Source: Nocardioidaceae bacterium
Lineage (GTDB): Bacteria > Actinomycetota > Actinomycetes > Propionibacteriales > Nocardioidaceae
Direction of reading: 5' to 3'
Assembly (NCBI GenBank): GCA_035456965.1
Contig: DATICF010000004.1
Coordinates: 918-24,917 of the forward strand
DNA: 24,000 nt
Shown: piece by piece, positions 2,030 through 22,590 of the stretch
Position numbering within the stretch: the stretch's first letter is position 1
Layout: each line of letters begins with the position of its first letter
The notes under the pieces: model-generated
What the model saw: only the letters and a program-made list of their open reading frames with translations
Database searches by the model: none
What the model was told of the DNA's origin: nothing
Made by a program: the position numbers and the translations under genes

Positions 2030-2135
2030 TCGATCCGGGCGTACGCATGAGAGCAACGTCTGCGTAAGTGGGTCGTGCTGGGCGGCCCCAGCAGCGCGAG
2101 GGGGACGGCTCTCGCCCCCTGGATTGGTGGCGGCG

Positions 2136-3194
2136 ATGCCCACAGCGGAAGCAGTCAAGGCCGAAGAGACACTGATCCACGTTCTCTGGATCAATGCCGG
2201 ACTCAGCTGCGACGGCGACTCGGTCGCCCTCACGGCCGCCACACAGCCCAGCATCGAGGAGATCGCACTGGGTGCCCTCCCCGGCCTCCCCAAGATCGCG
2301 GTGCACTGGCCCCTCATCGACTTCGAGTCCGGGCCCACCGGAGGTGCTGACGACTTCCTCGAGTGGTTCTTCAAGGCCGACCGTGGCGAGCTGGAACCCT
2401 TCGTGCTCGTCGTCGAGGGGTCGATCCCCAACGAGAAGCTCAAGGACGAGGGCTACTGGTGCGGGTTCGGCAACAACCCCGACACCGGCCAGCCGATGAC
2501 CACGAGCGAGTGGCTCGACCGGCTTGCGCCCAAGGCGACTGCCATCGTCGCGGCCGGCACGTGTGCGACGTACGGTGGCATCCACGCGATGGCCGGCAAC
2601 CCCACCGGCGCCATGGGCGTCCCCGACTATCTCGGCTGGGACTGGAAGTCCAAGGCGGGCATCCCGATCGTCTGCGTCCCGGGCTGTCCCATCCAGCCGG
2701 ACAACCTGTCCGAGACGCTGACCTACCTGCTCTACATGGCCACCGAGCAGGCACCGATGATCCCGCTCGACGACGCCCTTCGCCCGACCTGGCTGTTCGG
2801 CCAGACGGTCCACGAGGGCTGTGACCGCGCGGGGTACTACGAGCAGGCCGACTTCGCGACCGAGTACGGCTCCCCGAAATGCATCGTCAAGCTCGGCTGC
2901 TGGGGACCGGTCGTGAAGTGCAACGTCCCCAAGCGGGGCTGGATGAACGGCGTGGGCGGCTGTCCGAACGTCGGAGGTATCTGCATCGGCTGCACCATGC
3001 CCGGCTTCCCCGACAAGTTCATGCCCTTCATGGACGAACCTCCCGGCGGAAAGATGTCCACGACCGCTGTCGGTCTCTACGGCACGGCCATCAAGCGCTT
3101 ACGCGGCGTAACCACCCACACCCTCGACAAAGAGCCCAAGTGGCGTACACGGGGGACCAAACTCCTGACCGGAGCCGACCGCACCTGGTCGTGA
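2136..3194 (+). CDS. hhyS: Group 1h [NiFe]-hydrogenase small subunit (no Tat signal peptide)
   Basis: The track ORF starts at TTG 2124; I prefer ATG 2136 (GGTGG 5 nt upstream). FeS ligand motifs: SCDGD, GTCATYGG, PGCPIQP, HEGCD, KLGCWGPVVKCN, GGCPNVGGICIGCTMPGFPD. The N-terminus MPTAEAVKAEETLIHVLW has no RRxF twin-arginine motif. Confidence 0.92.
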   Translation: MPTAEAVKAEETLIHVLWINAGLSCDGDSVALTAATQPSIEEIALGALPGLPKIAVHWPLIDFESGPTGGADDFLEWFFKADRGELEPFVLVVEGSIPNEKLKDEGYWCGFGNNPDTGQPMTTSEWLDRLAPKATAIVAAGTCATYGGIHAMAGNPTGAMGVPDYLGWDWKSKAGIPIVCVPGCPIQPDNLSETLTYLLYMATEQAPMIPLDDALRPTWLFGQTVHEGCDRAGYYEQADFATEYGSPKCIVKLGCWGPVVKCNVPKRGWMNGVGGCPNVGGICIGCTMPGFPDKFMPFMDEPPGGKMSTTAVGLYGTAIKRLRGVTTHTLDKEPKWRTRGTKLLTGADRTWS

Positions 3195-3210
3195 GCCACA
3201 GAGAGGCGGC

Positions 3211-5007
3211 GTGATGACGTCGACCATGCCTCGACCCTCCAAGATCGCTGAGGACTCAAAAGGCCTCACCGAGATGGCCTGGGACCCGATCACCCGGATC
3301 GTGGGCAGCCTCGGCATCTACACCAAGATCGACTTCGGAAACATGCAGGTTGCCGAGTGCCACAGCACGAGCTCGATCTTCCGTGGCTACTCGATCTTCA
3401 TGAAGGGCAAGGACCCGCGCGACGCCCACTTCATCACCAGTCGCATCTGCGGCATCTGCGGGGACAACCACGCGACGTGCTCCTGCTACTGCCAGAACAT
3501 GGCCTACGGCGTGAAGCCGCCCCACATCGGCGAGTGGATCGTCAACCTCGGCGAGGCCGCGGAGTACATGTTCGACCACAACATCTACCAGGAGAACCTG
3601 CTCGGCGTTGACTACTGCGAGCGGATGGTCGCGGAGACCAACCCGGGCGTGCTCGAGCAGGCCAACCGCACCGAGGCGCCCAACGCCGAGGCGCACGGCT
3701 ACAAGACGATCGGCGACATCATGCGGTCGCTGAACCCGTTCTCGGGCGAGTTCTACCGCGAGGCGCTGCAGGTCAGCCGCTACACGCGCGAGATGTTCTG
3801 CCTGATGGAGGGACGCCACGTCCACCCGTCCACGCTCTACCCGGGCGGGGTCGGGACCGTCGCGACGATCCAGCTGATGACCGACTACATGAGCCGGTTG
3901 ATGCGCTACGTCGAGTTCATGAAGAAGGTCGTGCCGATGCACGACGACCTCTTCGACTTCTTCTACGAGGCCATGCCCGGCTACGAGGAGGTCGGCCGGC
4001 GCCGGATCCTCCTGGGCTGCTGGGGCTCCTTCCAGGACCCGGAGGTGTGCAACTTCGAGTACCGCGACATGACCGACTGGGGCCGCAAGATGTTCGTCAC
4101 CCCTGGCGTCGTCGTGGACGGCAAGCTCGTCACCAACGACCTGGTCGACATCAACCTCGGCATCCGCATCCTGCTCGGGTCGTCGTACTACGACGACTGG
4201 GAGGACCAGGAGATGTTCGTGCGGCAGGATCCGCTCGGCAACCCGGTCGACCGCCGGCACCCCTGGAACCAGCACACGAACCCGCACCCCCAGAAGCGCG
4301 ACCTGGACGACAAGTACTCCTGGGTCATGTCGCCACGCTGGTACGACGGCACCGACCACCTGGCCCTGGACACCGGCGGCGGACCGATCGCACGACTCTG
4401 GTCGACGGCGCTGTCCGGCCTGGTCGACGTCGGCTACGTGAAGGCGACCGGCCACAGCGTGCAGATCAACCTGCCGAAGACCGCGCTGAAGGGGCCGGTG
4501 AGCTTCGAGTGGAAGATCCCGCAGTGGTCGAACACGATCGAGCGTGGCCGCGCCCGGACCTACTTCCAGGCCTACGCGGCTGCGTGCGCCCTCCACTTCG
4601 CCGAGCAGGCACTCGCCGAGATCAGGGCCGGACGGACGAAGACCTGGGAGAAGTTCGACGTCCCGGAGGAGGGCATCGGCTGCGGCTTCACCGAGGCCGT
4701 CCGCGGCGTGCTGAGCCACCACATGGTGATCCGCGACGGGAAGATCGCCAACTACCACCCCTACCCGCCGACGCCGTGGAACGCGAACCCGCGCGACTCC
4801 TTCGGGACGCCTGGCCCCTACGAGGACGCGGTCCAGGGGCAGCCGATCTTCGAGGAGAACGACCGCGACAACTTCAAGGGCATCGACATCATGCGCACGG
4901 TGCGCAGCTTCGATCCCTGTCTGCCGTGCGGGGTGCACATGTACCTCGGCAACGGCAAGGAGCTCGAGGTCATGCACACCCCGACCCAGTCGGCCGGCAG
5001 CGAGTAG
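3211..5007 (+). CDS. hhyL: Group 1h (group 5) [NiFe]-hydrogenase large subunit
   Basis: 598-aa ORF starting at GTG 3211 or ATG 3214, with GAGAGG upstream. L1 motif TSRICGICGDNH (3436-3471) and L2 motif SFDPCLPCGVH (4906-4938) match the signatures I recall for group 5/1h enzymes. A 22-aa extension (MYLGNGKELEVMHTPTQSAGSE) follows the C-terminal His, consistent with protease processing. Confidence 0.95.
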   Translation: MMTSTMPRPSKIAEDSKGLTEMAWDPITRIVGSLGIYTKIDFGNMQVAECHSTSSIFRGYSIFMKGKDPRDAHFITSRICGICGDNHATCSCYCQNMAYGVKPPHIGEWIVNLGEAAEYMFDHNIYQENLLGVDYCERMVAETNPGVLEQANRTEAPNAEAHGYKTIGDIMRSLNPFSGEFYREALQVSRYTREMFCLMEGRHVHPSTLYPGGVGTVATIQLMTDYMSRLMRYVEFMKKVVPMHDDLFDFFYEAMPGYEEVGRRRILLGCWGSFQDPEVCNFEYRDMTDWGRKMFVTPGVVVDGKLVTNDLVDINLGIRILLGSSYYDDWEDQEMFVRQDPLGNPVDRRHPWNQHTNPHPQKRDLDDKYSWVMSPRWYDGTDHLALDTGGGPIARLWSTALSGLVDVGYVKATGHSVQINLPKTALKGPVSFEWKIPQWSNTIERGRARTYFQAYAAACALHFAEQALAEIRAGRTKTWEKFDVPEEGIGCGFTEAVRGVLSHHMVIRDGKIANYHPYPPTPWNANPRDSFGTPGPYEDAVQGQPIFEENDRDNFKGIDIMRTVRSFDPCLPCGVHMYLGNGKELEVMHTPTQSAGSE

Positions 5008-5016
5008 CGGCAGGAC

Positions 5017-5952
5017 ATGGCAGGCACGCCGCAGGCAGGAGCGAGCCCCGAGGCCGGGCCGCCGGACCTGCGCGCGGTCGGCGACCGCATCGACGCCCTG
5101 CTGGACGCGAGTGCGTCGGGCGGGGTCGTCGCGCGTGAACGGTCCGAGGAGCTCGTGCGGCTGGTCGCCGACCTGTACGGCGCCGGAATCGAACGCATCC
5201 TCGAGATCCTCCACGACGCGGGGCGCCTCGACGAGGACGTGCTCGCGCAGCTCGCCGACGACGACCTGGTGGCCAGCATCCTGATCGTGCATGGCCTGCA
5301 CCCCTACGGCGTCGAGCAGCGGGTCGAGGACGCCCTGGAGAAGGTGCGTCCCTACCTCGGCTCCCACGGCGGTGACGTGGAGCTGCTCGAGGTCACCAAC
5401 CGGGGCGTCGTCCGGCTGCGGCTGCTCGGAAGCTGTGACGGCTGCCCGTCCTCGTCGGTCACCCTCAACCTCGCCGTGGAGGGCGCCATCGAGGCTGCCG
5501 CCCCGGAGGTCACGACGATCGAGGTCGAGACCCGCGGCGAGGAGCCGAGGTCTCCTCTGATCCCGGCCGAGTCCCTCATGTCCCACCTGCGCGAGAAGGA
5601 CCCGGGAGGTTCGTGGGAGGCCGTGCCTGAACTCTCGCTCCTGAACCCAGGCGGGGTGGTCGCGGCGGAGGTCCAGCAGACCTCCGTCATGGGCTGTCGC
5701 GTCGGCGACGACCTGTACGCCTTCTCGAGCCGGTGCCCGCGCTGCGAGTCGGACCTGGCCTCGGCAAGGCTGGCTCGAAGGCTCGGCGGCGACCGCCACG
5801 ACGCGCTGCTGACCTGTCCCTCGTGCCAGGCCCACTTCGACGTACGACGTGCCGGCGCGTGTCTCGACGACCCCGAGCTCCACCTCGACCCGCTGCCCCT
5901 GCTCAGCAACGACGGTGTCGTGTCCGTGGCGGTGCCGAGGCCGGTGGCGTGA
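5017..5952 (+). CDS. hhyE: NifU-like / Rieske-like putative iron-sulfur protein of the hydrogenase locus (HhyE-type)
   Basis: 311 aa. The central NifU C-terminal-type domain reads VRPYLGSHGGDVELLEV...LLGSCDGCPSSSVTL. The C-terminal Rieske-fold-like region has CPRC (5734-5745) and CPSC (5815-5826) where Rieske proteins have CxH...CxxH. Its position directly after the large subunit matches the HucE/HhyE proteins described in Mycobacterium smegmatis (recollection). Confidence 0.75.
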   Translation: MAGTPQAGASPEAGPPDLRAVGDRIDALLDASASGGVVARERSEELVRLVADLYGAGIERILEILHDAGRLDEDVLAQLADDDLVASILIVHGLHPYGVEQRVEDALEKVRPYLGSHGGDVELLEVTNRGVVRLRLLGSCDGCPSSSVTLNLAVEGAIEAAAPEVTTIEVETRGEEPRSPLIPAESLMSHLREKDPGGSWEAVPELSLLNPGGVVAAEVQQTSVMGCRVGDDLYAFSSRCPRCESDLASARLARRLGGDRHDALLTCPSCQAHFDVRRAGACLDDPELHLDPLPLLSNDGVVSVAVPRPVA

Positions 5953-6581: not shown

Positions 6582-7264
6582 GCAGCTACAGGTTCACCGT
6601 GCTCGACGTCTTCGCCGAGCCCTACGCCGCCGCCCCCCAGCTCACGGCGCGGCTGCGGGTCGAGGAGTCGACGGGGCAGGCCGTGCATGCCGTGGCATTG
6701 CGGTGTCAGGTCCGTATCGAGCCGCAGCGACGGGGCTACGACAGCGACGAGGCGGCAGGCCTGGCCTCGATCTTCGGGGATCGCTCACGCTGGGCGCAGA
6801 CGCTCAAGCCGTTCTTGTGGATGCAGTCCAACACCACCGTCCAGGGGTTCACCGGCGTCACCGAGGTCGACCTTGCCCTGCCCTGCACCTACGACTTCGA
6901 CGTGACGGCGTCGCGCTACCTGCACTCCCTCGGCGAGGGGACGGTGCCGGTGAGCTTCCTGTTCTCCGGAACGGTGTTCACGCGGGGCACGACCGGGTTC
7001 GGAGTGGAGCAGGTGCCGTGGGACTGCGACGCGACCTACCGGCTCCCGGTGGCTGTGTGGCACCAGATGATGGAGAACTACTTCCCGGGCACCGGCTGGA
7101 TCCGCCTGGACCGTGAGGTGCTGGACAGGTTGGCCGAGCACCGGACGGCCCACGGGTTCACGACCTGGGAGGAGACGATCTCCCACCTGCTGTCCACGCG
7201 GTCCGAGCCGGGCCGCCCGCTGACACAGGCGGCCTCTCCCGACAACGTCGGAGGTGGCGCATGA
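6578..7264 (+). CDS. Conserved hydrogenase-cluster protein of unknown function (DUF6084-like, from memory)
   Basis: Track ORF 5849..7264 trimmed to ATG 6578 (ATGA stop/start overlap with the upstream gene). The 228-aa product MSSYRFTVLDVFAEPYAAAPQL has a non-repetitive, globular composition, whereas the 5' extension is Arg/Pro/Gly junk. Confidence 0.7.
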   Translation: MSSYRFTVLDVFAEPYAAAPQLTARLRVEESTGQAVHAVALRCQVRIEPQRRGYDSDEAAGLASIFGDRSRWAQTLKPFLWMQSNTTVQGFTGVTEVDLALPCTYDFDVTASRYLHSLGEGTVPVSFLFSGTVFTRGTTGFGVEQVPWDCDATYRLPVAVWHQMMENYFPGTGWIRLDREVLDRLAEHRTAHGFTTWEETISHLLSTRSEPGRPLTQAASPDNVGGGA

Positions 7265-8739
7265 GCCTGGACCAGGTACGCGCCGTCGCCGACGCAGTGC
7301 TCTACGAGGGCTACCTCCTCTACCCCTACCGCGCCACCGCTCGCAAGAACCAGGCGCGCTGGCAGTTCGGTGTGCTCGGGCCTCCCGGGGCTGCGGAACG
7401 AGGTGCGGGCGAGGAGCCGGAGATGGCCGTCCAGTGCCTGCTCGCAGCGGCCGGCGACTCGGACAACCCGGCGGGCTACTCGCTGCGGATCCACGTGCGC
7501 TTCCTGCAGCTCCAGGTCCGCACCGTGGAGAGGTACGACGACCGGGGCGAGCGTTTCGTGCCGGTGGACGTCCTCACGGCCGGCGGCGAGCAGTGGCTGT
7601 CGTGGGACGAGGCCGTGGAGCAGGAAGTCGTCCTCGACTGCTCCGCCGACGACCTGCGGGAGGGGGTCTCCCACGACAGCGTCGTCGAGGGGCACGAGGA
7701 GGTCGAGGAGATCCCGTCGGCCGGGGGCCGGATCGTCCGGCGGCGCTGGCCGATGCAGGCCCGGGTGACCGCGACCGCGACGCAGGACGGTGAACTCGTC
7801 AGGCTCGAGGTGCGGGTCGCGAACGTCTCAGGGGAACGCCCAACGGATCCGGACTCCGGCTCCCCTGAGGCAGCGATCCGCACCTCGCTCATCGGCACCC
7901 ACCTGATCCTGGTCGCCGAAGGCGCGCGCTTCCTCTCGGTCGTCGACCCGCCGTTGCCTGCGGCGGCCGCCTCCAGGCGATGCACCCAGCACCGCTGCTG
8001 GCCCGTGCTGGCGGGGCCTCGACCCGAGACGAGCGGGTCGGCCGAGGAGGGAGACCAGGAGCGGGCAAGCAGTGCAGTCGTGCTCGCGTCGCCGATCATC
8101 CTCTACGACTTCCCCGAGGTCGCCGAAGAGAGCGCCGGTGCGCTCTTCGACGCCACGGAGATCGACGAGATCCTCACGCTGCGGGTCATGACGATGACCG
8201 ATGAGGAGAAGGCCGAGGCGCGAGCAACCGACCCGCGGGCCCGCGAGATCATCGACCGCTGCGACAACCTGCCGGCTTCGGCGCTGCAGGAGCTGCACGG
8301 AATCTGGCGCAACCCCCACGCCGACCCGAGCGCCGACCCGCACGGCGCACGCGACGTCCGCGAGGTGGAGCCGCCCACCTTCGGCGAACCGGAGGTGCCC
8401 TGGTGGGACCCGGCTGCGGACGAAGCGGTGCGTCCCGAGCTCGACGTCGTGACCATCGACGGCGTACCGGTGTCCAAGGGCAGCCTGGTGCGCGTGCATC
8501 CTTCCCGGCGCGCCGACGCCCAGGACCTGTTCTTCGCCGACCAGGTGGCGCGGGTCACCGCGGTGCTCTCCGACGTCGACGGCGGGGTGCACGTCGCCCT
8601 CGTACTGGCCGACGACCCGGGCGCCGACCTGCACGACTGGTACGGCCGCTACTGGTACTTCGCCCCGGACGAGCTGGAACCCCTGACCGGCCACGACGCG
8701 GAGCCGACATCACCCGAGCACCGGTCGAGCAGCCACTGA
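7261..8739 (+). CDS. Conserved hydrogenase-cluster protein of unknown function, 492 aa
   Basis: ATG 7261 in an ATGA overlap with the upstream gene, GGAGG 6 nt upstream. Clean ORF with strong GC3 bias. I recognise no catalytic motif. The C-terminal ~90 aa (VVTIDGVPVSKGSLVRVHP...VHVALVL...WYGRYWYFAPDELE) looks like a small beta-barrel. Confidence 0.7.
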   Translation: MSLDQVRAVADAVLYEGYLLYPYRATARKNQARWQFGVLGPPGAAERGAGEEPEMAVQCLLAAAGDSDNPAGYSLRIHVRFLQLQVRTVERYDDRGERFVPVDVLTAGGEQWLSWDEAVEQEVVLDCSADDLREGVSHDSVVEGHEEVEEIPSAGGRIVRRRWPMQARVTATATQDGELVRLEVRVANVSGERPTDPDSGSPEAAIRTSLIGTHLILVAEGARFLSVVDPPLPAAAASRRCTQHRCWPVLAGPRPETSGSAEEGDQERASSAVVLASPIILYDFPEVAEESAGALFDATEIDEILTLRVMTMTDEEKAEARATDPRAREIIDRCDNLPASALQELHGIWRNPHADPSADPHGARDVREVEPPTFGEPEVPWWDPAADEAVRPELDVVTIDGVPVSKGSLVRVHPSRRADAQDLFFADQVARVTAVLSDVDGGVHVALVLADDPGADLHDWYGRYWYFAPDELEPLTGHDAEPTSPEHRSSSH

Positions 8740-8764: not shown

Positions 8765-8884
8765 GTGAGGAAAGTCGGAAAGGTGACCACGTTCGTGGTC
8801 CTCGCCGCCGTCTGCGCGGCCGCTGTCGTCGGCGTCCGGTCGATCCCGGACATCAAGCGGTACCGCCACATGCGGCAGATGTGA
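8765..8884 (+). CDS. 39-aa single-pass membrane micro-protein in the hydrogenase locus
   Basis: Below the track's size cut-off. GTG 8765 has GAGGAG 8 nt upstream. Product: VRKVGKVTTFVVLAAVCAAAVVGVRSIPDIKRYRHMRQM, one hydrophobic helix followed by a basic tail. It fills the only sizeable gap in the operon. It resembles ~40-aa actinobacterial small proteins (DUF6893-like, from memory, unverified). Confidence 0.5.
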   Translation: MRKVGKVTTFVVLAAVCAAAVVGVRSIPDIKRYRHMRQM

Positions 8885-8912: not shown

Positions 8913-11837
8913 GTGACTCAGGGCCGGAGCAGGTCGAACCCACGGGTCCTGGTGGCGGGGGTCGGCAACCTCTTCCTGAGCGACGACGGCTTCGGGTCCG
9001 AGGTCGCTCGGAGGCTGCTGGCCGAAGGCGACCTGCCCGGGAACGCGCTCGTCGTCGACTACGGGATCCGGGGGATGCACCTGGCGTACGACCTGCTGGA
9101 CGGCTACGACGGCCTGGTCATCCTCGACGCCGTTCCCGGGGAGGGTGTGCCCGGCGACGTCAGTGTGCTGGAGGTGGGCCGGGACGATCTCGGCTCGGGG
9201 GAGCTCGACGCCCATGGCATGAACCCCGTCGCCGTGCTCGCGAACCTCGAGCGGCTCGGGGGCACCCTGCCGCCGACGTACGTCGTGGGGTGTCGCCCCG
9301 CCACCGTCGAGGACGGCATCGGCCTGTCCCCGGCGGTCGAGGCGGCTGTGCCGGTAGCGGTCGAAACCGTGAGGCGGCTGCTCGGCAACCATCTCTCCGG
9401 CGACCACGCCCCTGCCGCGTCGATACCGGACGGGTCGGCGGCGGTCGGGTCGGCGGACGTTACGAGGCCGGCCGACCACACCGACGGCACGAGCCGCATC
9501 CGACGCAGGTACGAGATCTCCGGGGTGGTGCAGGGCGTGGGCTTCCGGCCCTTCGTCTACGTCACCGCCTCCGAGCTCGCGCTCACCGGCTCGGTCGCCA
9601 ACGACGTGGCAGGGGTGGTGGTCGAGGTCGAGGGCGAGCCCGGGGCGGTAGCTGAGCTCGGCCGGCGTCTGGCCGACGACGCGCCGCCGCTGTCGGTGGT
9701 GGAGAGCATCCACGAGACCGAGCTCGAGCCTCTGGGGGGCACCGGGTTCACCATCGAGGAGTCCACCGGCACGGGAGACAAACGCACCCTCGCCTCCCCC
9801 GACGTGTCGCTGTGCTCGGACTGCCTGCGAGAGATGTGCGACCCGGAGAACCGGCGGTACCGACATCCATTCATCACCTGCACGAACTGCGGCCCCCGCT
9901 TCACGATCATCACGGACCTGCCCTACGACCGGGCGACCACGACGATGGCCGCCTTCGAGATGTGCCCCGCGTGCCGTCGGGAGTACGACGACCCTGCCGA
10001 CCGTCGCTTCCACGCGCAGCCCATCGCCTGTCCAGACTGCGGTCCGCGCCTGGAACTGGTGACGAAGGACGCCACCGCACCCCTCGTGGACGGGGACGCG
10101 CTCGCCGCCGCGCGCGTGCGCCTGGCCAACGGAGGGATCATCGCGGTCAAGGGCCTCGGGGGCTACCACCTGGCCTGTGATGCCGGCAACGAGAAGGCAG
10201 TGGCCGAGCTGCGACGGCGCAAGCAGCGCGGCGACAAGCCGTTCGCGGTGATGGTGCGCGACCTCGAGACCGCGCACCGGATCGTCGACCTCGCCCCGGA
10301 GGAGGGGCAGTTGCTGGGTGGTGTCCGAAGGCCGATCATGCTCACCGGGCGCGTCGCCGCGGACGGCGCGGACGAGGGTCTCGTCGCCCCGTCGGTGGCC
10401 CCGGGCAACCCCGACCTCGGTGTCCTGCTCCCCTACACCCCCCTGCACGTCCTGCTGTTCGGACTCCCTGGCGACGAACCCGGTCCGCCCGTGCTCGTGA
10501 TGACCTCCGGCAACCTGTCGGGAGAGCCGATCGTCACCGACGACGCGGAGGCACGGACACGACTCAATCCTCTCGTCGACGCGTGGCTGATGCACGACCG
10601 GCCCATCCACGTGCCCTGCGACGACTCCGTCGCGCGGGTCGTCGCCGGCGCCGAGCTGCCGATTCGCAGATCGCGCGGCTACGCCCCATTGCCGATCGCG
10701 CTTCCCTTCGAGGTCGACCCGACCCTTGCCGTGGGCGCTGACCTGAAGAACACCTGCGCTCTCGCGAGCGGCCGGTACGCCTGGGTCAGCCAGCACATCG
10801 GCGACATGGACGACCTCGCCACCCTCGACGCGTTCTCCGCGACCGAGCAACACCTCGAGCGCCTGACCGGTGTGGCGCCCGGGCTGCTCGTCTCGGACCA
10901 GCACCCCGGCTACCGGTCCACCGCCTGGGCCACCTCCCATGCACAGGGTCGCCCCGTCCGAACCGTGCAGCACCACCACGCCCACGTCGCCTCGGTCATG
11001 GGCGAGCACGGCCTCGGCCACGACGAGCCGGTGATCGGCTTCGCCTTCGACGGCACGGGGTTCGGCACCGACCAGGCGGTGTGGGGCGGCGAGGTCCTCG
11101 TCGCCGACTACAAGGGATTCCGCCGCGCGGCCCACCTCGCCTACGTCGCGCTCGCCGGCGGCGACACCAGCGTGCACCGGCCTTACCGGATGGCGCTCTC
11201 GCACCTGCGCACCGCGGGGCTCGACTGGGACGACGACATCCCCGCTGTTGCCGTCTGCCCGGCCGCGGAGCGCCGCGTGCTCGCCCACCAGCTCGAGACC
11301 GGCTTCGGCTGCGTCCCGACCTCGAGCATGGGACGGCTCTTCGACGCCGTCGCCTCTCTGGCCGGGGTGCGGCATGTCGTGGACTACGAGGCCGAGGCAG
11401 CCATGGAGTTCGAGGGCCTGGCCCGCTCTGCGCGCCCGCTGGCGGACGGCGGATCGCCGCGCCGCTCCCCCGGCACGCCCTACGCCTTCGCCGTCACCCC
11501 TGGTACGACGGACGGGCGACCCGCCACAGCGGAGGCCGGCCCCCTCATCCGGGCCGTCGTCGACGACGTCCGGGCAGGCGTGCCGGCGAGCACGATCTCG
11601 GCGCGCTTCCACCACGCCGTCACCCGGCTGATCGTCGACCTCGCCGATCTGGCCCGCACCGAGACGGGGCTGACTACCGTCGTACTCAGTGGTGGTGTGT
11701 TCCAGAACGCGTTGCTGCTCCACGCATCCTCCGACGCGCTGAGTGAGCGCGGCTTCACAGTCCTGCGGCCCAGACTCCTGCCGCCCAACGACGGCGGCAT
11801 CGCCCTCGGTCAGATTTTGGTCGGCGCGTCCGGCTGA
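8913..11837 (+). CDS. hypF: In-frame fusion of hydrogenase maturation endopeptidase (HupD/HybD family) with carbamoyltransferase HypF
   Basis: 974-aa ORF from GTG 8913. Residues 1-160 are the endopeptidase: VLVAGVGNLFLSDDGFG, ILDAV, DAHG (the Asp/Asp/His metal triad). A ~33-aa linker (9393-9491) has no stop and no in-frame ATG/GTG/TTG. HypF follows: acylphosphatase ISGVVQGVGFRPFVY; zinc fingers CSDC...CTNCGPRF and CPAC...CPDCGPR; YrdC-like KGLGGYHLACDA; C-terminal PNDGGIALGQ. Confidence 0.88.
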   Translation: MTQGRSRSNPRVLVAGVGNLFLSDDGFGSEVARRLLAEGDLPGNALVVDYGIRGMHLAYDLLDGYDGLVILDAVPGEGVPGDVSVLEVGRDDLGSGELDAHGMNPVAVLANLERLGGTLPPTYVVGCRPATVEDGIGLSPAVEAAVPVAVETVRRLLGNHLSGDHAPAASIPDGSAAVGSADVTRPADHTDGTSRIRRRYEISGVVQGVGFRPFVYVTASELALTGSVANDVAGVVVEVEGEPGAVAELGRRLADDAPPLSVVESIHETELEPLGGTGFTIEESTGTGDKRTLASPDVSLCSDCLREMCDPENRRYRHPFITCTNCGPRFTIITDLPYDRATTTMAAFEMCPACRREYDDPADRRFHAQPIACPDCGPRLELVTKDATAPLVDGDALAAARVRLANGGIIAVKGLGGYHLACDAGNEKAVAELRRRKQRGDKPFAVMVRDLETAHRIVDLAPEEGQLLGGVRRPIMLTGRVAADGADEGLVAPSVAPGNPDLGVLLPYTPLHVLLFGLPGDEPGPPVLVMTSGNLSGEPIVTDDAEARTRLNPLVDAWLMHDRPIHVPCDDSVARVVAGAELPIRRSRGYAPLPIALPFEVDPTLAVGADLKNTCALASGRYAWVSQHIGDMDDLATLDAFSATEQHLERLTGVAPGLLVSDQHPGYRSTAWATSHAQGRPVRTVQHHHAHVASVMGEHGLGHDEPVIGFAFDGTGFGTDQAVWGGEVLVADYKGFRRAAHLAYVALAGGDTSVHRPYRMALSHLRTAGLDWDDDIPAVAVCPAAERRVLAHQLETGFGCVPTSSMGRLFDAVASLAGVRHVVDYEAEAAMEFEGLARSARPLADGGSPRRSPGTPYAFAVTPGTTDGRPATAEAGPLIRAVVDDVRAGVPASTISARFHHAVTRLIVDLADLARTETGLTTVVLSGGVFQNALLLHASSDALSERGFTVLRPRLLPPNDGGIALGQILVGASG

Positions 11838-11859: not shown

Positions 11860-12168
11860 ATGTGTCTCGCGGTTCCGGGACGAGTTCTCTCGGTCGAGGA
11901 ACGAGACGACACCCTGATGGCCGAGGTCGACTTCGGCGGGGTGCGCAAGGACGTCTGCTTGGAGTACATCCCGGACGTCGAGGTCGGTGAGTACGTGGTG
12001 GTCCACGTCGGGTTCGCCATCCAGCGGCTCGACGAGAAGTCCGCCATGGAGACACTGTCCAACTTCGAGAAGCTCGGGATCCTCGAGGAGGAGTTCGGCG
12101 ATGGTTTCGAGCTGGCCGCAAAGCAGGCCGGCGAGCACACCGTTGCGCAGGAGGGAGCCTCGTCATGA
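11860..12168 (+). CDS. hypC: HypC/HupF-family hydrogenase assembly chaperone (copy 1, extended C-terminus)
   Basis: Track ORF 11743..12168 trimmed to ATG 11860 (GGAGGAAAG upstream). N-terminus MCLAVPGRV has the essential Cys2. [12 protein letters not shown] motif. At 102 aa it is about 20-25 residues longer than copy 2. Confidence 0.88.
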
Positions 12169-13268
12169 AGTACCTGGACGAGTTCAGCAACCCCGAGCTG
12201 GCCAAGCGGCTGCTCGACCAGATCCACGCGGTCACCACCCAGCAATGGGCGATGATGGAGGTCTGCGGCGGCCAGACCCACTCGATCATCCGGCACGGCA
12301 TCGACCAGCTGCTCCCCGAGGGCGTCGAGATGATCCACGGTCCCGGCTGCCCGGTGTGCGTCACGCCGTTGGAGATCATCGACAAGGCGCTCGAGATCGC
12401 CAAGCGGCCCGACGTCGTCTTCTGCTCGTTCGGGGACATGCTCCGGGTACCCGGCAGCAGCCAGGACCTGTTCCAGATCAAGAGCGAGGGCGGTGACGTC
12501 CGCGTCGTCTACTCACCCCTCGACGCCCTGAAGCTGGCCCGGGCAAACCCCGACAAGCAAGTCGTGTTCTTCGGCATCGGCTTCGAGACCACCGCCCCCG
12601 CCAACGCCATGACCGTGTACCAGGCAGAGCGCCTGGGCGTGAAGAACTTCTCCCTGCTCGTCTCGCACGTGCTCGTGCCACCCGCCATCGCGGCGATCAT
12701 GGAGTCACCGACCTGTCGGGTGCAGGCTTTCCTTGCAGCAGGCCACGTCTGCAGCGTCATGGGCACTCAGGAGTACCCACCGCTGGCGGAGAAGTACAAG
12801 GTCCCGATCGTGGTCACCGGCTTCGAGCCGCTCGACATCCTCGAGGGGATCCGCCGCACCGTCGTCCAGCTCGAGGAGGGCAGGCACGAGCTCGAGAACG
12901 CCTACCCGCGGGCAGTGCGCGAGGAGGGGAACCTCCCGGCGAAGCAGATGCTCCTCGACGTGTTCGAGCCGACCGACCGGACCTGGCGGGGCATCGGGAT
13001 GATCCCCCAGAGCGGCTGGAAGCTCTCGCCGAAGTACCGCGAGTTCGACGCCGAGGAGCGCTTCGCGGTCGGCGACATCCGCACCGACGAGTCACCCCTG
13101 TGCCGGTCCGGCGAGGTCTTGCAGGGCCTGATCAAGCCGCACGAGTGCGCGGCGTTCGGCAAGCAGTGCACGCCGCGCAACCCGCTCGGGGCGACCATGG
13201 TCTCCTCCGAGGGCGCTTGTGCCGCCTACTACGCCTACCGCCGCCTGGAGCTGGTGGACGCGACATGA
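12165..13268 (+). CDS. hypD: Hydrogenase maturation Fe-S protein HypD
   Basis: ATGA overlap with hypC. Motifs [35 protein letters not shown]. 367 aa. Confidence 0.95.
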
Positions 13269-14365
13269 CCGACTCGATGGAACGGACCGAGATCATGGAA
13301 GGCACAGAGCCCCTCGACTTCGAGGGCTGGGTCTGCCCCATGCCTCTGCGCGACTCCCCCACGATCGTCATGGGTCATGGCGGTGGTGGCGCGATGTCGG
13401 GAGAGCTGATCGAGCAGCTTTTCCTGCCCGCGTTCGGTGAGGCCGCCTCAGCGGCGGATCTGGGCGACGCGGCCGTGGTGAGCGTCAACGGCGGGACCCG
13501 GCTGGCGTTCTCCACCGACTCGTTCGTGGTGAAGCCGATGTTCTTCCCCGGCGGGTCGGTAGGCGACCTCGCGGTCAACGGGACCGTCAACGACCTCGCG
13601 ATGGTGGGCGCCACCCCGCTGTACCTCTCCACTGCGTTCATCGTCTCCGAGGGCACCCCGATGAGCGACCTCGGCCGGGTCGCGAACGCCGTGGGCGCCG
13701 CTGCCAGAGCCGCCGGCGTCGGACTGGTCACCGGTGACACCAAGGTCGTCGACAGCGGCAGCGGCGACGGCGTCTACATCAACACCGCAGGCATTGGCGT
13801 GCTCCCCGACGGCGTCGACATCCGGCCGAACCGTGCCGCGGTCGGCGACGCCGTGATCATCAGCGGCGACATCGGCGTGCACGGCGTGGCAGTGATGAGC
13901 TGCCGCGAAGGCCTCGAGTTCGGTACGACGGTCGAGAGCGACACCGCCGCGCTGCACGGGCTGGTGGCTGCGATGGTCGACACGGGCGCCGACATCCACG
14001 CATTGCGCGACCCGACGCGTGGCGGCGTGTCCGCGACGCTGAACGAGATCGCCCGCGCCTCGGGGGTCGGCATCGATCTGGTCGAGCAGCACCTGCCGAT
14101 CCCCCAGATGGTCAAGGACGCCTGCGGCCTGCTCGGGCTGGACCCGCTGCAGGTGGCCAACGAGGGCAAGCTGCTGGCGATCGTCCCCGCCGAGTCGGCC
14201 GACGAGGTGCTCGAGGCGATGCGACGCCACCCCCTCGGTGCAGGAGCGCAGCGGATCGGCACGTGCACCGACGAGCACCGGCGCATGGTCGTGGCCAGGA
14301 CCGGCCTCGGCGGCACCAGGGTGATCGACCTGCCCATCGGCGAGCAGCTGCCGCGGATCTGCTGA
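13265..14365 (+). CDS. hypE: Hydrogenase maturation carbamoyl dehydratase HypE
   Basis: Track ORF 13100..14365 trimmed to ATG 13265 (ATGA overlap with hypD). AIR-synthase-like fold motifs ([22 protein letters not shown]) and the diagnostic C-terminal PRIC. Confidence 0.93.
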
Positions 14366-14395: not shown

Positions 14396-14644
14396 ATGTG
14401 CCTCGGCATCCCGGGTCAGGTGGTGCAGATCCTCGACGAGCACGACGGCCAGCTCGCGCTCGTCGACGTACAGGGAGCGCGGCGGAAGGTGAACCTCGGG
14501 ATCCTCGACGCACCGCCGACCAGCGGCGACTGGATCCTGATCCACATGGGCTTCGCCATGGAGGTCATCGACCTGCCCCGCGCCGAGCAGGCGCTCTCCG
14601 GACTGGAGACGATGGGGCGCTCCCGGGAGGCGGCCGATGGCTGA
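14396..14644 (+). CDS. hypC: HypC-family hydrogenase assembly chaperone (copy 2)
   Basis: ATG 14396 with AAGGAAGGAG upstream. MCLGIPGQVV N-terminus, GDWILIHMGFAM motif, 82 aa. Confidence 0.9.
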   Translation: MCLGIPGQVVQILDEHDGQLALVDVQGARRKVNLGILDAPPTSGDWILIHMGFAMEVIDLPRAEQALSGLETMGRSREAADG

Positions 14645-15455
14645 GCGACAAGCCCACGCTGCGGGTGCTCCCCGACCGGCCACGCTGGACGCGGCCCCCG
14701 GCCCGCTGCTGTTCGCGCGCTACGCGTTCCCCCCGAACTCCCACGGCTACTGCGGCCCCGGCGACCACGAGGCGTTCTTCGCCTACGGGGTCTCCGGGAT
14801 CGACGACGGGCTGCGTGCGCTTGCGCGGCAGTTCGAGGGCGCCTGGCCCTACCTCGAGCTGATCGCGGCCTCGACCGCGATCGACGACCCGCTGGACCGT
14901 CGCGTCGTCGAGGCCTACTGGGTGGGCAGCCCGCGACTCGAGCTCGTGGGCACTCGCGCCGTCGGTGACTCCGTCGACGAGCGGTTCCGGAAGATGGCCG
15001 GGGCCTCCTTCGCCACCTTGACCCAGAGCGTCCTGGCCGGCGGGGTCCCCCACCACAGCTTCGCGGTGTTCTGCATCTACCCGTGGACCGGGCTGCTCCA
15101 GTCGGGTCGCGGCGGCGAGCACGCCTTGCACGTGCTCGATCGTTGCCGGATCCGGTGGGGCAAGGTCCTCGCCGTCCAGGGCGACCAGGTCGTCGTGGAG
15201 AGCCAGCCGCTGACCTGGGACGGTCGCCGGCTCGGTCTCGGCGAGACATGCACCGAGACGGTCGTCCGTTCTGTCGACGGGGTCGGCATGGTCACCGACC
15301 TGCATGAAGGCGACCTGGTCTCGCTGCACTGGGAGTGGGTCTGCGACCGCCTCACGGCTCGGCAGGTGCGACTGCTGAAGGAGTACACGCAGCGACACCT
15401 GCGGATCGTCAACGAGGACCTCCATCCTGGACCGGCTCGCCTGCTCGACGGCTGA
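14637..15455 (+). CDS. Conserved hydrogenase-cluster protein of unknown function (DUF6390-like, from memory) with a HypC-like C-terminal region
   Basis: ATG 14637 overlaps the hypC2 stop by 8 nt, with GGGAGG upstream. 272 aa. C-terminal DRCRIRWGKVLAVQGDQVVVES...GDLVSLHWEWVCDRLTARQ parallels HypC's MCLGIPGQVVQI...GDWILIHMGFAMEVIDLPRAEQ (alignment by eye). Confidence 0.7.
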   Translation: MAERQAHAAGAPRPATLDAAPGPLLFARYAFPPNSHGYCGPGDHEAFFAYGVSGIDDGLRALARQFEGAWPYLELIAASTAIDDPLDRRVVEAYWVGSPRLELVGTRAVGDSVDERFRKMAGASFATLTQSVLAGGVPHHSFAVFCIYPWTGLLQSGRGGEHALHVLDRCRIRWGKVLAVQGDQVVVESQPLTWDGRRLGLGETCTETVVRSVDGVGMVTDLHEGDLVSLHWEWVCDRLTARQVRLLKEYTQRHLRIVNEDLHPGPARLLDG

Positions 15456-20983: not shown

Positions 20984-21037
20984 AAGGGTGAGCGGCCGCC
21001 CAGGAAGGGCGCCTCCAACCACAGGAGATGAACCGAG

Positions 21038-21361
21038 ATGCAGTACCTGTTCTCCGTGATCCACGACCAGCCCGACCTGGCGACCTCGGACGAGATGGCC
21101 GCCATCGATGCGTACAACGAAGGGCTCCAGGCCGACGGCTACTGGGTCTTCGCCGGCGGCCTCGGGCCACCCACCACGGCCACGGTCATCGACAACCGGA
21201 GTGGCGAGGCACTGCTCACCGACGGACCCTTCGTGGAGTCCAAGGAGTACCTCGCCGGCTTCTGGATCATCGAGGCCCCGGACCTCGACGTGGCCCTCAA
21301 GCTGGCCGCCGAGGGCTCGAAGGCCTGCAACCGGAAGGTCGAGGTGCGACCGTTCCTGTGA
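21038..21361 (+). CDS. YCII-related (DGPF-domain) protein
   Basis: 107 aa. GGAG upstream. Motif TDGPFVESKEYLAGFWIIEAPDLDVALKLAAE...VEVRPF. Its stop overlaps the sigma factor start (GTGA). Confidence 0.85.
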   Translation: MQYLFSVIHDQPDLATSDEMAAIDAYNEGLQADGYWVFAGGLGPPTTATVIDNRSGEALLTDGPFVESKEYLAGFWIIEAPDLDVALKLAAEGSKACNRKVEVRPFL

Positions 21362-22590
21362 GCACGGAAGACGTCTCAGCGGCGATCACCCGGGCCCATC
21401 ACGAGGAGTGGGCGCTGGTGGTCGCCGCCCTGACCAGACGTTTCGGTGACCTCGACATCGCCGAGGAGGCGGCGGCCGAGGCGTTCACGACCGCCGTCGA
21501 GCGGTGGCCGGTCGACGGCGTACCCCCCAATCCCGGTGCCTGGCTGACCACCACCGCCAAGCGCAAGGCCATCGACCGGATCCGACGCGAGAACAAGCGC
21601 GACGACAAAGAGGCGGAGGCTCAGTTGTTGTACGACGACGACTTGCCCGAGCCCTCAGGGGCCATCGGCGACGAGCGGCTCCGGCTGATCTTCACGTGCT
21701 GTCACCCCGCACTCGCGATGGAGACCCGCGTGGCGCTCACGCTGCGCATGGTCGGCGGGCTGACCGTGCCCGAGATCGCCCGTGCCTTCCTGGTGCAGGA
21801 GTCCACCATGGGCAAGCGGATCACCCGCGCCAAGGCGAAGATCAAGGCAGCTCACATCCCCTATCGGGTGCCGTCCTCTGAGGATCTCCCCGCACGTGTC
21901 TCCGGCGTGCTCGCCGTCCTCTTCCTCGTGTTCAACGAAGGCTACCTGGCCAGCGGCCCCGACACCGATCCCGTTCGTCGCGACCTGACCGCCGAGGCGA
22001 TCCGGCTCACTCGCCTGGTCCACGCCCTCCTGCCCGAGGACGGCGAGGTGGCCGGCCTGCTGGCACTGATGCTCCTCACCGAGGCTCGCCGCACCGCCCG
22101 GGTCGCAGCGAGCGGCGAGCTGATCACCCTCGGCGAGCAGGACCGCGGGGCCTGGGACGCAGCGCTGGTCGCCGAGGGGCATCGGCTTGTGCGTGAGCGC
22201 CTGGTCTCCGGGGTGGCTCCGGGTCGCTACCAGATCCTCGCCGCGATCAACGCCGTTCACACCTCCGCGCGCGACGTACGCGACACCGACTGGACGCAGG
22301 TCGTCGCCCTCTACGACCAGCTCGTCCGTCTCGACCCCTCCCCGGTCGTCGCCCTCAACCGGGCCGTCGCGGTCGCCGAGCTCGACGGCCCGGAGGTGGC
22401 ACTGGCGGCCGTCGACGGTCTCGAGGACCAGCTGTCCGGGTACCACGCCTACCATGCGACCCGTGCCGACCTGCTGCGCCGACTGGGCCTGAGCCAGAAC
22501 GCGCGAGCGGCCTACGACAGGGCGATCGAGCTGGCCGGCAACACCGCCGAGACCGCCTACCTGACACGCCGCCGCGACCAGCTGGGGTAG
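21358..22590 (+). CDS. ECF sigma factor with a long C-terminal TPR-like extension (ECF42-type)
   Basis: Track ORF 21028..22590 trimmed to GTG 21358 (the upstream part is out-of-frame overlap with the DGPF gene). Sigma2 region: AEEAAAEAFTTAVERWP...PGAWLTTTAKRKAIDRIRRE. Sigma4 region: ALTLRMVGGLTVPEIARAFLVQESTMGKRITRAKAKI. A ~240-aa extension follows (FNEGY...RYQILAAINAVH...YHAYHATRADLLRRLG). 410 aa. Confidence 0.85.
   Translation: MSTEDVSAAITRAHHEEWALVVAALTRRFGDLDIAEEAAAEAFTTAVERWPVDGVPPNPGAWLTTTAKRKAIDRIRRENKRDDKEAEAQLLYDDDLPEPSGAIGDERLRLIFTCCHPALAMETRVALTLRMVGGLTVPEIARAFLVQESTMGKRITRAKAKIKAAHIPYRVPSSEDLPARVSGVLAVLFLVFNEGYLASGPDTDPVRRDLTAEAIRLTRLVHALLPEDGEVAGLLALMLLTEARRTARVAASGELITLGEQDRGAWDAALVAEGHRLVRERLVSGVAPGRYQILAAINAVHTSARDVRDTDWTQVVALYDQLVRLDPSPVVALNRAVAVAELDGPEVALAAVDGLEDQLSGYHAYHATRADLLRRLGLSQNARAAYDRAIELAGNTAETAYLTRRRDQLG

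Follow-up and report, generated by a model that had tools for sequence, protein, structure and literature searches.

We analysed a stretch of 24,000 nucleotides from a Nocardioidaceae bacterium (contig DATICF010000004.1, positions 918 to 24,917), hereafter the window, which carries a complete [NiFe]-hydrogenase operon. In this operon a maturation endopeptidase and the carbamoyltransferase HypF are encoded by one open reading frame (ORF), at 8913-11837 on the + strand. HypF begins the synthesis of the cyanide ligands, and the maturation protease finishes the large subunit. Our results indicate that the ORF very probably codes for a genuine bifunctional protein, the sum of two known enzymes joined by a disordered linker. 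The novelty lies in the architecture alone; both halves belong to known families. No published description of a natural protease-HypF fusion was found, within an incomplete coverage of the literature.

The ORF starts with GTG, contains zero internal stops, and codes for 974 aa (102.4 kDa). The first-pass annotation, made from the sequence alone, had read this 974-codon frame as a complete HupD/HybD-type protease followed by a complete HypF, and the searches against Pfam and NCBIfam and the alignment of metal ligands bore this out. The peptidase A31 (HybD/HycI-like) domain covers residues ~11-159 (8943-9389, +), as judged from PF01750, TIGR00072, and alignment to 1CFZ/5TTX. PF01750 scored 53.8 bits (cut-off 23), with the Pfam HycI protease match at residues 30-153, and TIGR00072 (hydrogenase maturation protease) scored 110.8 bits against a cut-off of 47.45 over residues 13-156. 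The Cd/Ni ligands of E. coli HybD (1CFZ), E16, D62, and H93, align with D25, D72, and H101, which are invariant in the fused homologues. The HyaD/HybD subfamily models were not reached by this domain (60.7 vs 151.8 bits for TIGR00140 and 53.9 vs 190 bits for NF007777), and it is a superfamily member outside that subfamily, grouping with proteases encoded in the group-1h operons of actinobacteria. Compared with the E. coli proteases HybD and HycI (1CFZ, 2KML, 5TTX), it shares the fold family, the three metal ligands, and a nearby large subunit with DPCxxCxxH and an extension. However, HybD and HycI are stand-alone proteins of ~160 aa, whereas here the C-terminal helix runs on into the linker and HypF.

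The remainder of the protein carries every HypF module above the Pfam cut-offs. An acylphosphatase domain at residues ~195-285 (9495-9767, +) was delimited by PF00708 (match at 199-281) and by the alignment of fused homologues, and is followed by two zinc fingers (C301/304/323/326 and C351/354/373/376; 9810-10061, +; PF07503 in two stretches), a YrdC/Sua5-like domain at residues 404-586 (10122-10670, +; PF01300), and a Kae1-like carbamoyltransferase domain at residues 602-967 (10716-11813, +; PF17788 and PF22521, with HypF_C at 602-698 and HypF_C_2 at 709-967). The NCBIfam hypF equivalog TIGR00143 matched residues 202-970 with 724.7 bits against a cut-off of 466.1, spanning profile positions 3-739 of 741. 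The HypF module opens with the conserved RxRRR[YF]xxxGxVQGVGFRP, and in 11 aligned fused homologues the eight cysteines of the doubled CxxC-x18-CxxC pattern, KGxGGYHL, HHHAH, and DGTG are invariant. In its four modules and invariant motifs the protein thus resembles canonical HypF (E. coli; TIGR00143), from which it differs in the added N-terminal protease and in a HypF part without a translation start of its own. Judged by these domains and motifs, both modules appear intact, a complete protease and a complete HypF.

The two modules are joined by residues ~160-194 (HLSGDHAPAASIPDGSAAVGSADVTRPADHTDGTS; 9390-9494, +), delimited by codon reading and an AlphaFold2 (AF2) model, with the junction reading ...LLGNHLSGDHAPAASIPDGSAAVGSADVTR / PADHTDGTSR. 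The earlier claim that the linker holds no stop codon and no in-frame ATG, GTG, or TTG proved correct codon by codon, and no Shine-Dalgarno (SD) sequence was seen in it either. The last start-type codon 5' of the linker is a GTG within the C-terminal helix of the protease, and the first ones 3' of it are the GTGs of 'GVVQGVG' (V205/V206), which already lie within the acylphosphatase domain. A proper gene junction is available for comparison directly downstream, where hypC has an AGGAGG Shine-Dalgarno sequence, 8 nt, and ATG. In the AF2 model, the alpha/beta fold of the protease (residues 12-159) closes with a long C-terminal helix (140-159), residues 163-193 have no secondary structure and a predicted local distance difference test score (pLDDT) below 50 (about 28), and the first strand of the acylphosphatase domain starts from residue 196. 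The linker is therefore predicted to be disordered. Among the fused homologues, the spacing from GIGLS of the protease to GxVQG of HypF takes nine lengths between 36 and 69 residues, all in frame, and the linker of the window is the longest. The sequence and length of the linkers vary freely while the flanking modules are conserved, and some linkers extend just a few residues past the protease helix.

These features bear on the possibility that the protease and HypF end up as separate proteins, by internal initiation of HypF, for example at the GVVQGVG GTGs, or by cleavage of the linker, such that the fusion would exist only at the level of the DNA or the precursor. The GTG codons at V205/V206 and a linker predicted to be exposed and disordered, and so accessible to proteases, would allow this. 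However, no SD-like sequence precedes these GTGs, and initiation there would remove the first strand of the acylphosphatase domain together with the conserved RxRRR[YF] segment. The linkers also have no common cleavage-site motif, and some are very short, which makes such a separation very unlikely. Self-cleavage at a linker site resembling that of the large subunit was considered as well and ruled out, as no conserved motif occurs among the linkers. The bifunctional reading instead has translation run from the GTG at 8913 as one 102.4-kDa chain, so that HypF would be made only via the start codon of the protease.

The first-pass annotation had allowed that a sequencing or assembly frameshift merged two genes in this metagenome-assembled genome (MAG). 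Frameshifts do happen at this junction in long-read assemblies, and two frameshifted copies turned up, one in metagenome locus L002, where the shift lies in the linker, and one in G020 (L017, near 2020), where one extra G lies within the conserved YEVSGVVQG block. However, in these copies the 70 upstream codons in the HypF frame include no start codon, and the most plausible reading of both is a fusion that was broken or mis-sequenced. A pair of separate genes would require a stop, an SD sequence, and a start, none of which occurs in any frame-consistent position. Moreover, in a collection of 5.8 billion proteins, the combination of PF01750 with HypF was found in P0003-P0008 at 70-77% identity, and a second search with the protease region, limited to targets of 536-1704 aa, added the fused proteins P0123, P0124, P0125 (NCBI Jatrophihabitans MAG), and P0131. 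P0148 is a contig-end fragment of a further fusion. Altogether, about 12 protein clusters from independent assemblies share the same architecture with differing linkers, and their sources include NCBI, ENA, JGI, and Logan, with MEGAHIT contigs built from short reads as well as contigs of 0.4-1.1 Mb. Because the in-frame fusion is conserved across many independent assemblies and species, an artefact is effectively excluded, and we consider a frameshift error in this MAG extremely improbable as the source of the fusion.

Several proteins that seemed to be unfused HypFs were inspected in this context. P0010 was rejected as an unfused HypF: the call starts inside the acylphosphatase domain (MGFRPF...) and comes from L002, which has the protease upstream in another frame, so that the truncated call is caused by the frameshift. 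P0012 likewise starts inside the acylphosphatase domain (MQGVGFRPF...) and is a truncated call, while P0009, P0011, and P0014 are genuine stand-alone HypFs. The assembly series of L002 includes L001, whose large subunit is split. Frameshifts in conserved genes were a side observation in the long-contig metagenome relatives generally: the large subunit of L001 is split into 396 and 94 aa (2567-4035), its small subunit is short (L001:1509-2207), and the protease-HypF junctions at L002:7391-8266 and in L017 near 2020 are broken.

The fusion occurs rarely, and even within the genus its distribution is patchy. A search of a 50%-identity library with residues 1-296 returned nearly all stand-alone proteases and one partial fusion (P0148), a result that speaks to rarity and not to breadth. 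Across the genus, 24 species genomes were compared: the junction was spanned in G000, G003, and G012, and also in G020 with the frameshift; five species had protease, hypC, and DUF6390 in succession with no hypF within ~1.5 kb downstream, one had the protease followed by HypC-HypF, and two had separate protease, hypC, and hypF genes. In a family sample of 200 genomes, 79 matched, and the junction was spanned only in G000 and G003 (2/79). GTDB was scanned with one genome for each species, and the best 80 loci, those considered here, comprised a single fused locus (Jatrophihabitans sp., L018), 38 loci with protease and hypF ~230-400 nt apart, and 41 without hypF within 3 kb. The segment between protease and hypF is hypC/hupF-like (MCLGIPG...) and shares the reading frame of HypF in 21 of the 43 adjacent loci, including that of the 850-aa 'HypF' of Streptomyces. 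The first-pass annotation had asked whether orthologous loci show the same fusion or a stop/start junction; the fusion did recur in relatives, but the second alternative was too simple, since a hypC gene or domain normally intervenes.

From these gene orders, the ancestral layout was probably protease, hypC, and hypF, because this order was seen in the 38 GTDB loci, in genus mates, and in Mycobacterium smegmatis. In the latter, the genes of the group-1h hydrogenase Hhy include MSMEG_2713 (peptidase), MSMEG_2712 (hypC), and MSMEG_2711 (hypF) (PMC2799521). The window has this same operon type and gene neighbourhood, with the same order in the Mycobacterium locus L035 of the GTDB scan; however, M. 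smegmatis has three separate genes, whereas the window has no hypC in between and the outer two are joined. In the clade of the window, the hypC segment is absent between protease and HypF, and a hypC of that type lies 3' of hypE instead.

In the tree of the HypF core, the clade of the window received 100% support in the Shimodaira-Hasegawa-like approximate likelihood ratio test (SH-aLRT) and held eight fused rows together with the stand-alone P0009, P0011, and P0014. Starred branches separate this clade from the Jatrophihabitans-type fusions (P0123-5) and from P0131, which fall in other parts of the tree. Enforcing a single fused clade cost 78.6 log-likelihood units, with an approximately unbiased test p-value (p-AU) of 0.0006, for a group named after viewing the tree. 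The tree of the protease domain was compatible with the HypF tree but, with just 12 of its 97 branches starred, too poorly resolved for counting origins. On this phylogenetic evidence, the fusion appears to have arisen at least twice within Actinomycetota. It also appears to have been lost at least occasionally, and the nesting of P0009, P0011, and P0014 in the fused clade suggests that it is readily lost. Two further candidates were set aside. The 'PTIGCRPGE' upstream of P0011 (L003) was considered as a relic of the protease 'PTYVVGCRPAT', and the likeness was too weak to be used. Open frames above 1000 aa in the family sample had suggested protease-HypC-HypF triple fusions, which were rejected after ten loci were fetched: a stop separates the protease from HypC-HypF wherever both were located, in L108-L110 a single in-frame stop. 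The HypF P0011 itself lies at L003:7740-10367 (a contig also present as G156:C1), in a hyp cluster beside a group-3-like hydrogenase, and no hhy operon was seen within the 8 kb upstream flank examined.

Fusions of HypF to HypC/HupF were very common among the loci examined. They are ~840-860 aa long, carry just the annotation 'carbamoyltransferase HypF', open with MCLGIPG... followed by RxRRRF-GVVQGVGF, and lie directly 3' of a group-1h protease gene, as in L030:3507-6059 (Streptomyces sp. NBC_00984) and in L013 of the genus of the window. Further cases are L022, L029, L032, L040, L050-L054, L058-L064, L068, L074, L076, L081, L083, L084, and L087. Like the protein studied here, these proteins of Streptomyces, Actinoplanes, and Nocardioidaceae (~850 aa) have an upstream neighbour fused onto the RxRRR[YF] start of HypF. 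They differ in the partner, the HypC/HupF chaperone, and in being common, whereas the protease fusion is rare.

For the origin of the fusion, we favour the joining of neighbour genes in actinobacterial hhy operons, in which the intervening hypC segment and the stop would have been lost and the frames joined. In these operons the neighbouring genes are often tightly coupled, or HypC and HypF already form one protein. In detail, hypC could have been deleted from an ancestor with protease, stop, and HypC-HypF, or hypFCDE could have been inserted behind the protease. Such fusions would be tolerated, recurrent, and occasionally lost. The modules of the chain, held ~35 residues apart by the disordered linker, most likely act independently. 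Several points weigh against the bifunctional reading and its proposed origin. The mutational route is deduced from gene orders. The AF2 model is of no more than moderate quality (mean pLDDT 66 from an 11-row alignment) and silent on contacts between domains. Finally, the argument from in-frame conservation is partly circular, as the fused homologues come from protein searches that miss frameshifted copies.

A different explanation sees the fusion as a tether that holds the protease on a HypF-HypE-HypCD complex bound to the precursor of the large subunit, so that ligand synthesis, insertion, and cleavage occur on one scaffold. This idea agrees with the at least two independent origins, with the sister lineages that fuse the N-terminus of HypF to another precursor-binding protein, HypC/HupF (the 21 of 43 loci above), and with a report that in Salmonella the complexes of maturation proteases with the large subunit are stable and depend on hypF (PMC5299533). 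However, the fusion is rare and patchy (1/80 GTDB loci, 2/79 family genomes, and no more than a subset of the species in the genus), it seems readily lost, its linker is unconstrained in length and sequence, and both partners are upstream neighbours of hypF, which is what neighbour-gene fusion predicts without selection. A rare, patchily distributed fusion that was gained and lost repeatedly and has an unconstrained linker is better explained as a tolerated joining of neighbour genes than as a selected scaffold, and we regard tethering as unlikely. The first-pass annotation had seen in the fusion a hint of a physically organised maturation assembly, and this idea gained no support from the analyses made here. 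It is similarly doubtful that HypF in these bacteria belongs to a complex on the large-subunit precursor instead of being a free-floating early enzyme, and there is only a slim chance that its N-terminus adjoins a needed precursor-binding partner, mostly HypC/HupF and here the endopeptidase. If this were true, the recurrent N-terminal fusions would be a 'Rosetta stone' for a complex of HypF, precursor, and protease in the biogenesis of O2-exposed high-affinity hydrogenases.

Under the favoured reading, a tolerated fusion of two independently acting enzymes, the N-terminal module would be the large-subunit-specific endopeptidase of a group-1h (Hhy-type) hydrogenase. Its presumed substrate is the group-1h-type large subunit at 3211-5007 (+). 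The 22-aa cleavable extension noted in the first pass (4939-5004) is present: the C-terminus consists of DPCLPCGVH and 22 residues, with predicted cleavage after H576. The best solved relative of this subunit is the group-1h HofG (5AA5) at 1086 bits, with the runner-up at 166 bits, and the deposited HofG chain stops exactly at the His aligned to the predicted cleavage site. The protease module would remove the extension after nickel insertion. Binding to the large subunit persists in maturation proteases that bear a His tag or a T18 domain at the C-terminus (PMC5299533), thus a C-terminal extension of the protease is compatible with substrate binding. In the source genome (98% complete), zf-HYPF matches occur solely in the fusion ORF. 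There are two [NiFe] large subunits in the genome, the second of which (contig C140) has its own stand-alone protease. As the fusion is the sole HypF of the genome, it must be functional if either hydrogenase is, and its HypF part would carbamoylate HypE to provide the CN ligands for both.

The operon lies on the + strand of the window, which has a GC content of ~69%. Its order is hypA (546-1109, start not refined), hypB (986-1957, start not refined), the [NiFe]-hydrogenase small subunit (2124-3194), the large subunit, a NifU-Rieske gene, genes for DUF5947/DUF6084-type proteins, a 492-aa protein without a Pfam match, a 39-aa microprotein, and the fusion ORF. These are followed by hypC copy 1 (MCLAVPG..., 11861-12168, the gene with its own ATG and AGGAGG), hypD (12165-13268), hypE (13265-14365, overlapping the hypD stop in ATGA), a second, hypC/hupF-like copy (MCLGIPGQVV..., 14396-14644) that overlaps the start of DUF6390, and DUF6390 (14637-15455), all on the + strand. 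The two hypC paralogues differ, and in relatives it is genes of the copy 2 type that adjoin the protease or are fused to HypF. The large subunit is closest to HofG/HhyL, and the accessory genes typical of group 1h are present (NifU-Rieske, DUF5947/DUF6084, PHG067-069-like), suggesting that the operon belongs to the actinobacterial-type, high-affinity group 1h. The hydrogenase would be of the air-hydrogen-scavenging type, and the source organism appears to be an uncultured soil-type actinobacterium.

If both halves are active, the protein would naturally unite in a single chain the dedicated steps that open and close [NiFe]-cofactor maturation. With one tag, it would then also serve to pull down intermediates in the maturation of the group-1h hydrogenases that oxidise atmospheric H2, enzymes whose assembly has received little study. 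The tolerance of large fusions by the HypF N-terminus and the protease C-terminus may be useful for engineering minimal maturation operons. The fusion also matters for annotation: the fused proteins bear no label beyond 'carbamoyltransferase HypF', which makes the protease seem absent from such genomes, and the frameshifted long-read copies give truncated HypF calls. The current evidence leaves the picture of the maturation mechanism unchanged, and the mechanistic significance is probably modest.

Several other large proteins with maturation domains were observed. P0189, P0204, P0135, P0281, and P0126-P0143 are proteins of 560-670 aa annotated as 'hydrogenase maturation protease' (P0136, 623 aa, is from Pseudonocardia thermophila); in P0189, P0204, P0135, and P0281 the protease domain is C-terminal (around residues 440-640). 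A fusion with the ~450-490-aa protein encoded upstream, the homologue of the gene at 7261-8739, would account for their size, and they may be real or run-on calls. The same holds for two metagenomic proteins, P0145 (613 aa), with HypA, HypB, and protease domains in one protein, and P0144 (1526 aa), with HypF and HypD domains and a match to the protease query.

Within the window, the 39-aa single-pass microprotein (MRKVGKVTTFVVLAAVCAAAVVGVRSIPDIKRYRHMRQM) at 8765-8884 (+), which was too small to feature in the ORF list, matches DUF6893 genes called likewise in L001 and L098, just 5' of the protease. The gene at 5017-5952 (+), directly 3' of the large subunit, codes for a fusion of a NifU-like with a Rieske-like [2Fe-2S] domain, and in M. 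smegmatis a 'Rieske family' protein, MSMEG_2718, adjoins the hhy structural genes. Further downstream, 21028-22590 (+) codes for a sigma factor of the extracytoplasmic function (ECF) type (Sigma70_r2/r4_2) with a C-terminal DUF6596, which appears unrelated to the hydrogenase cluster.

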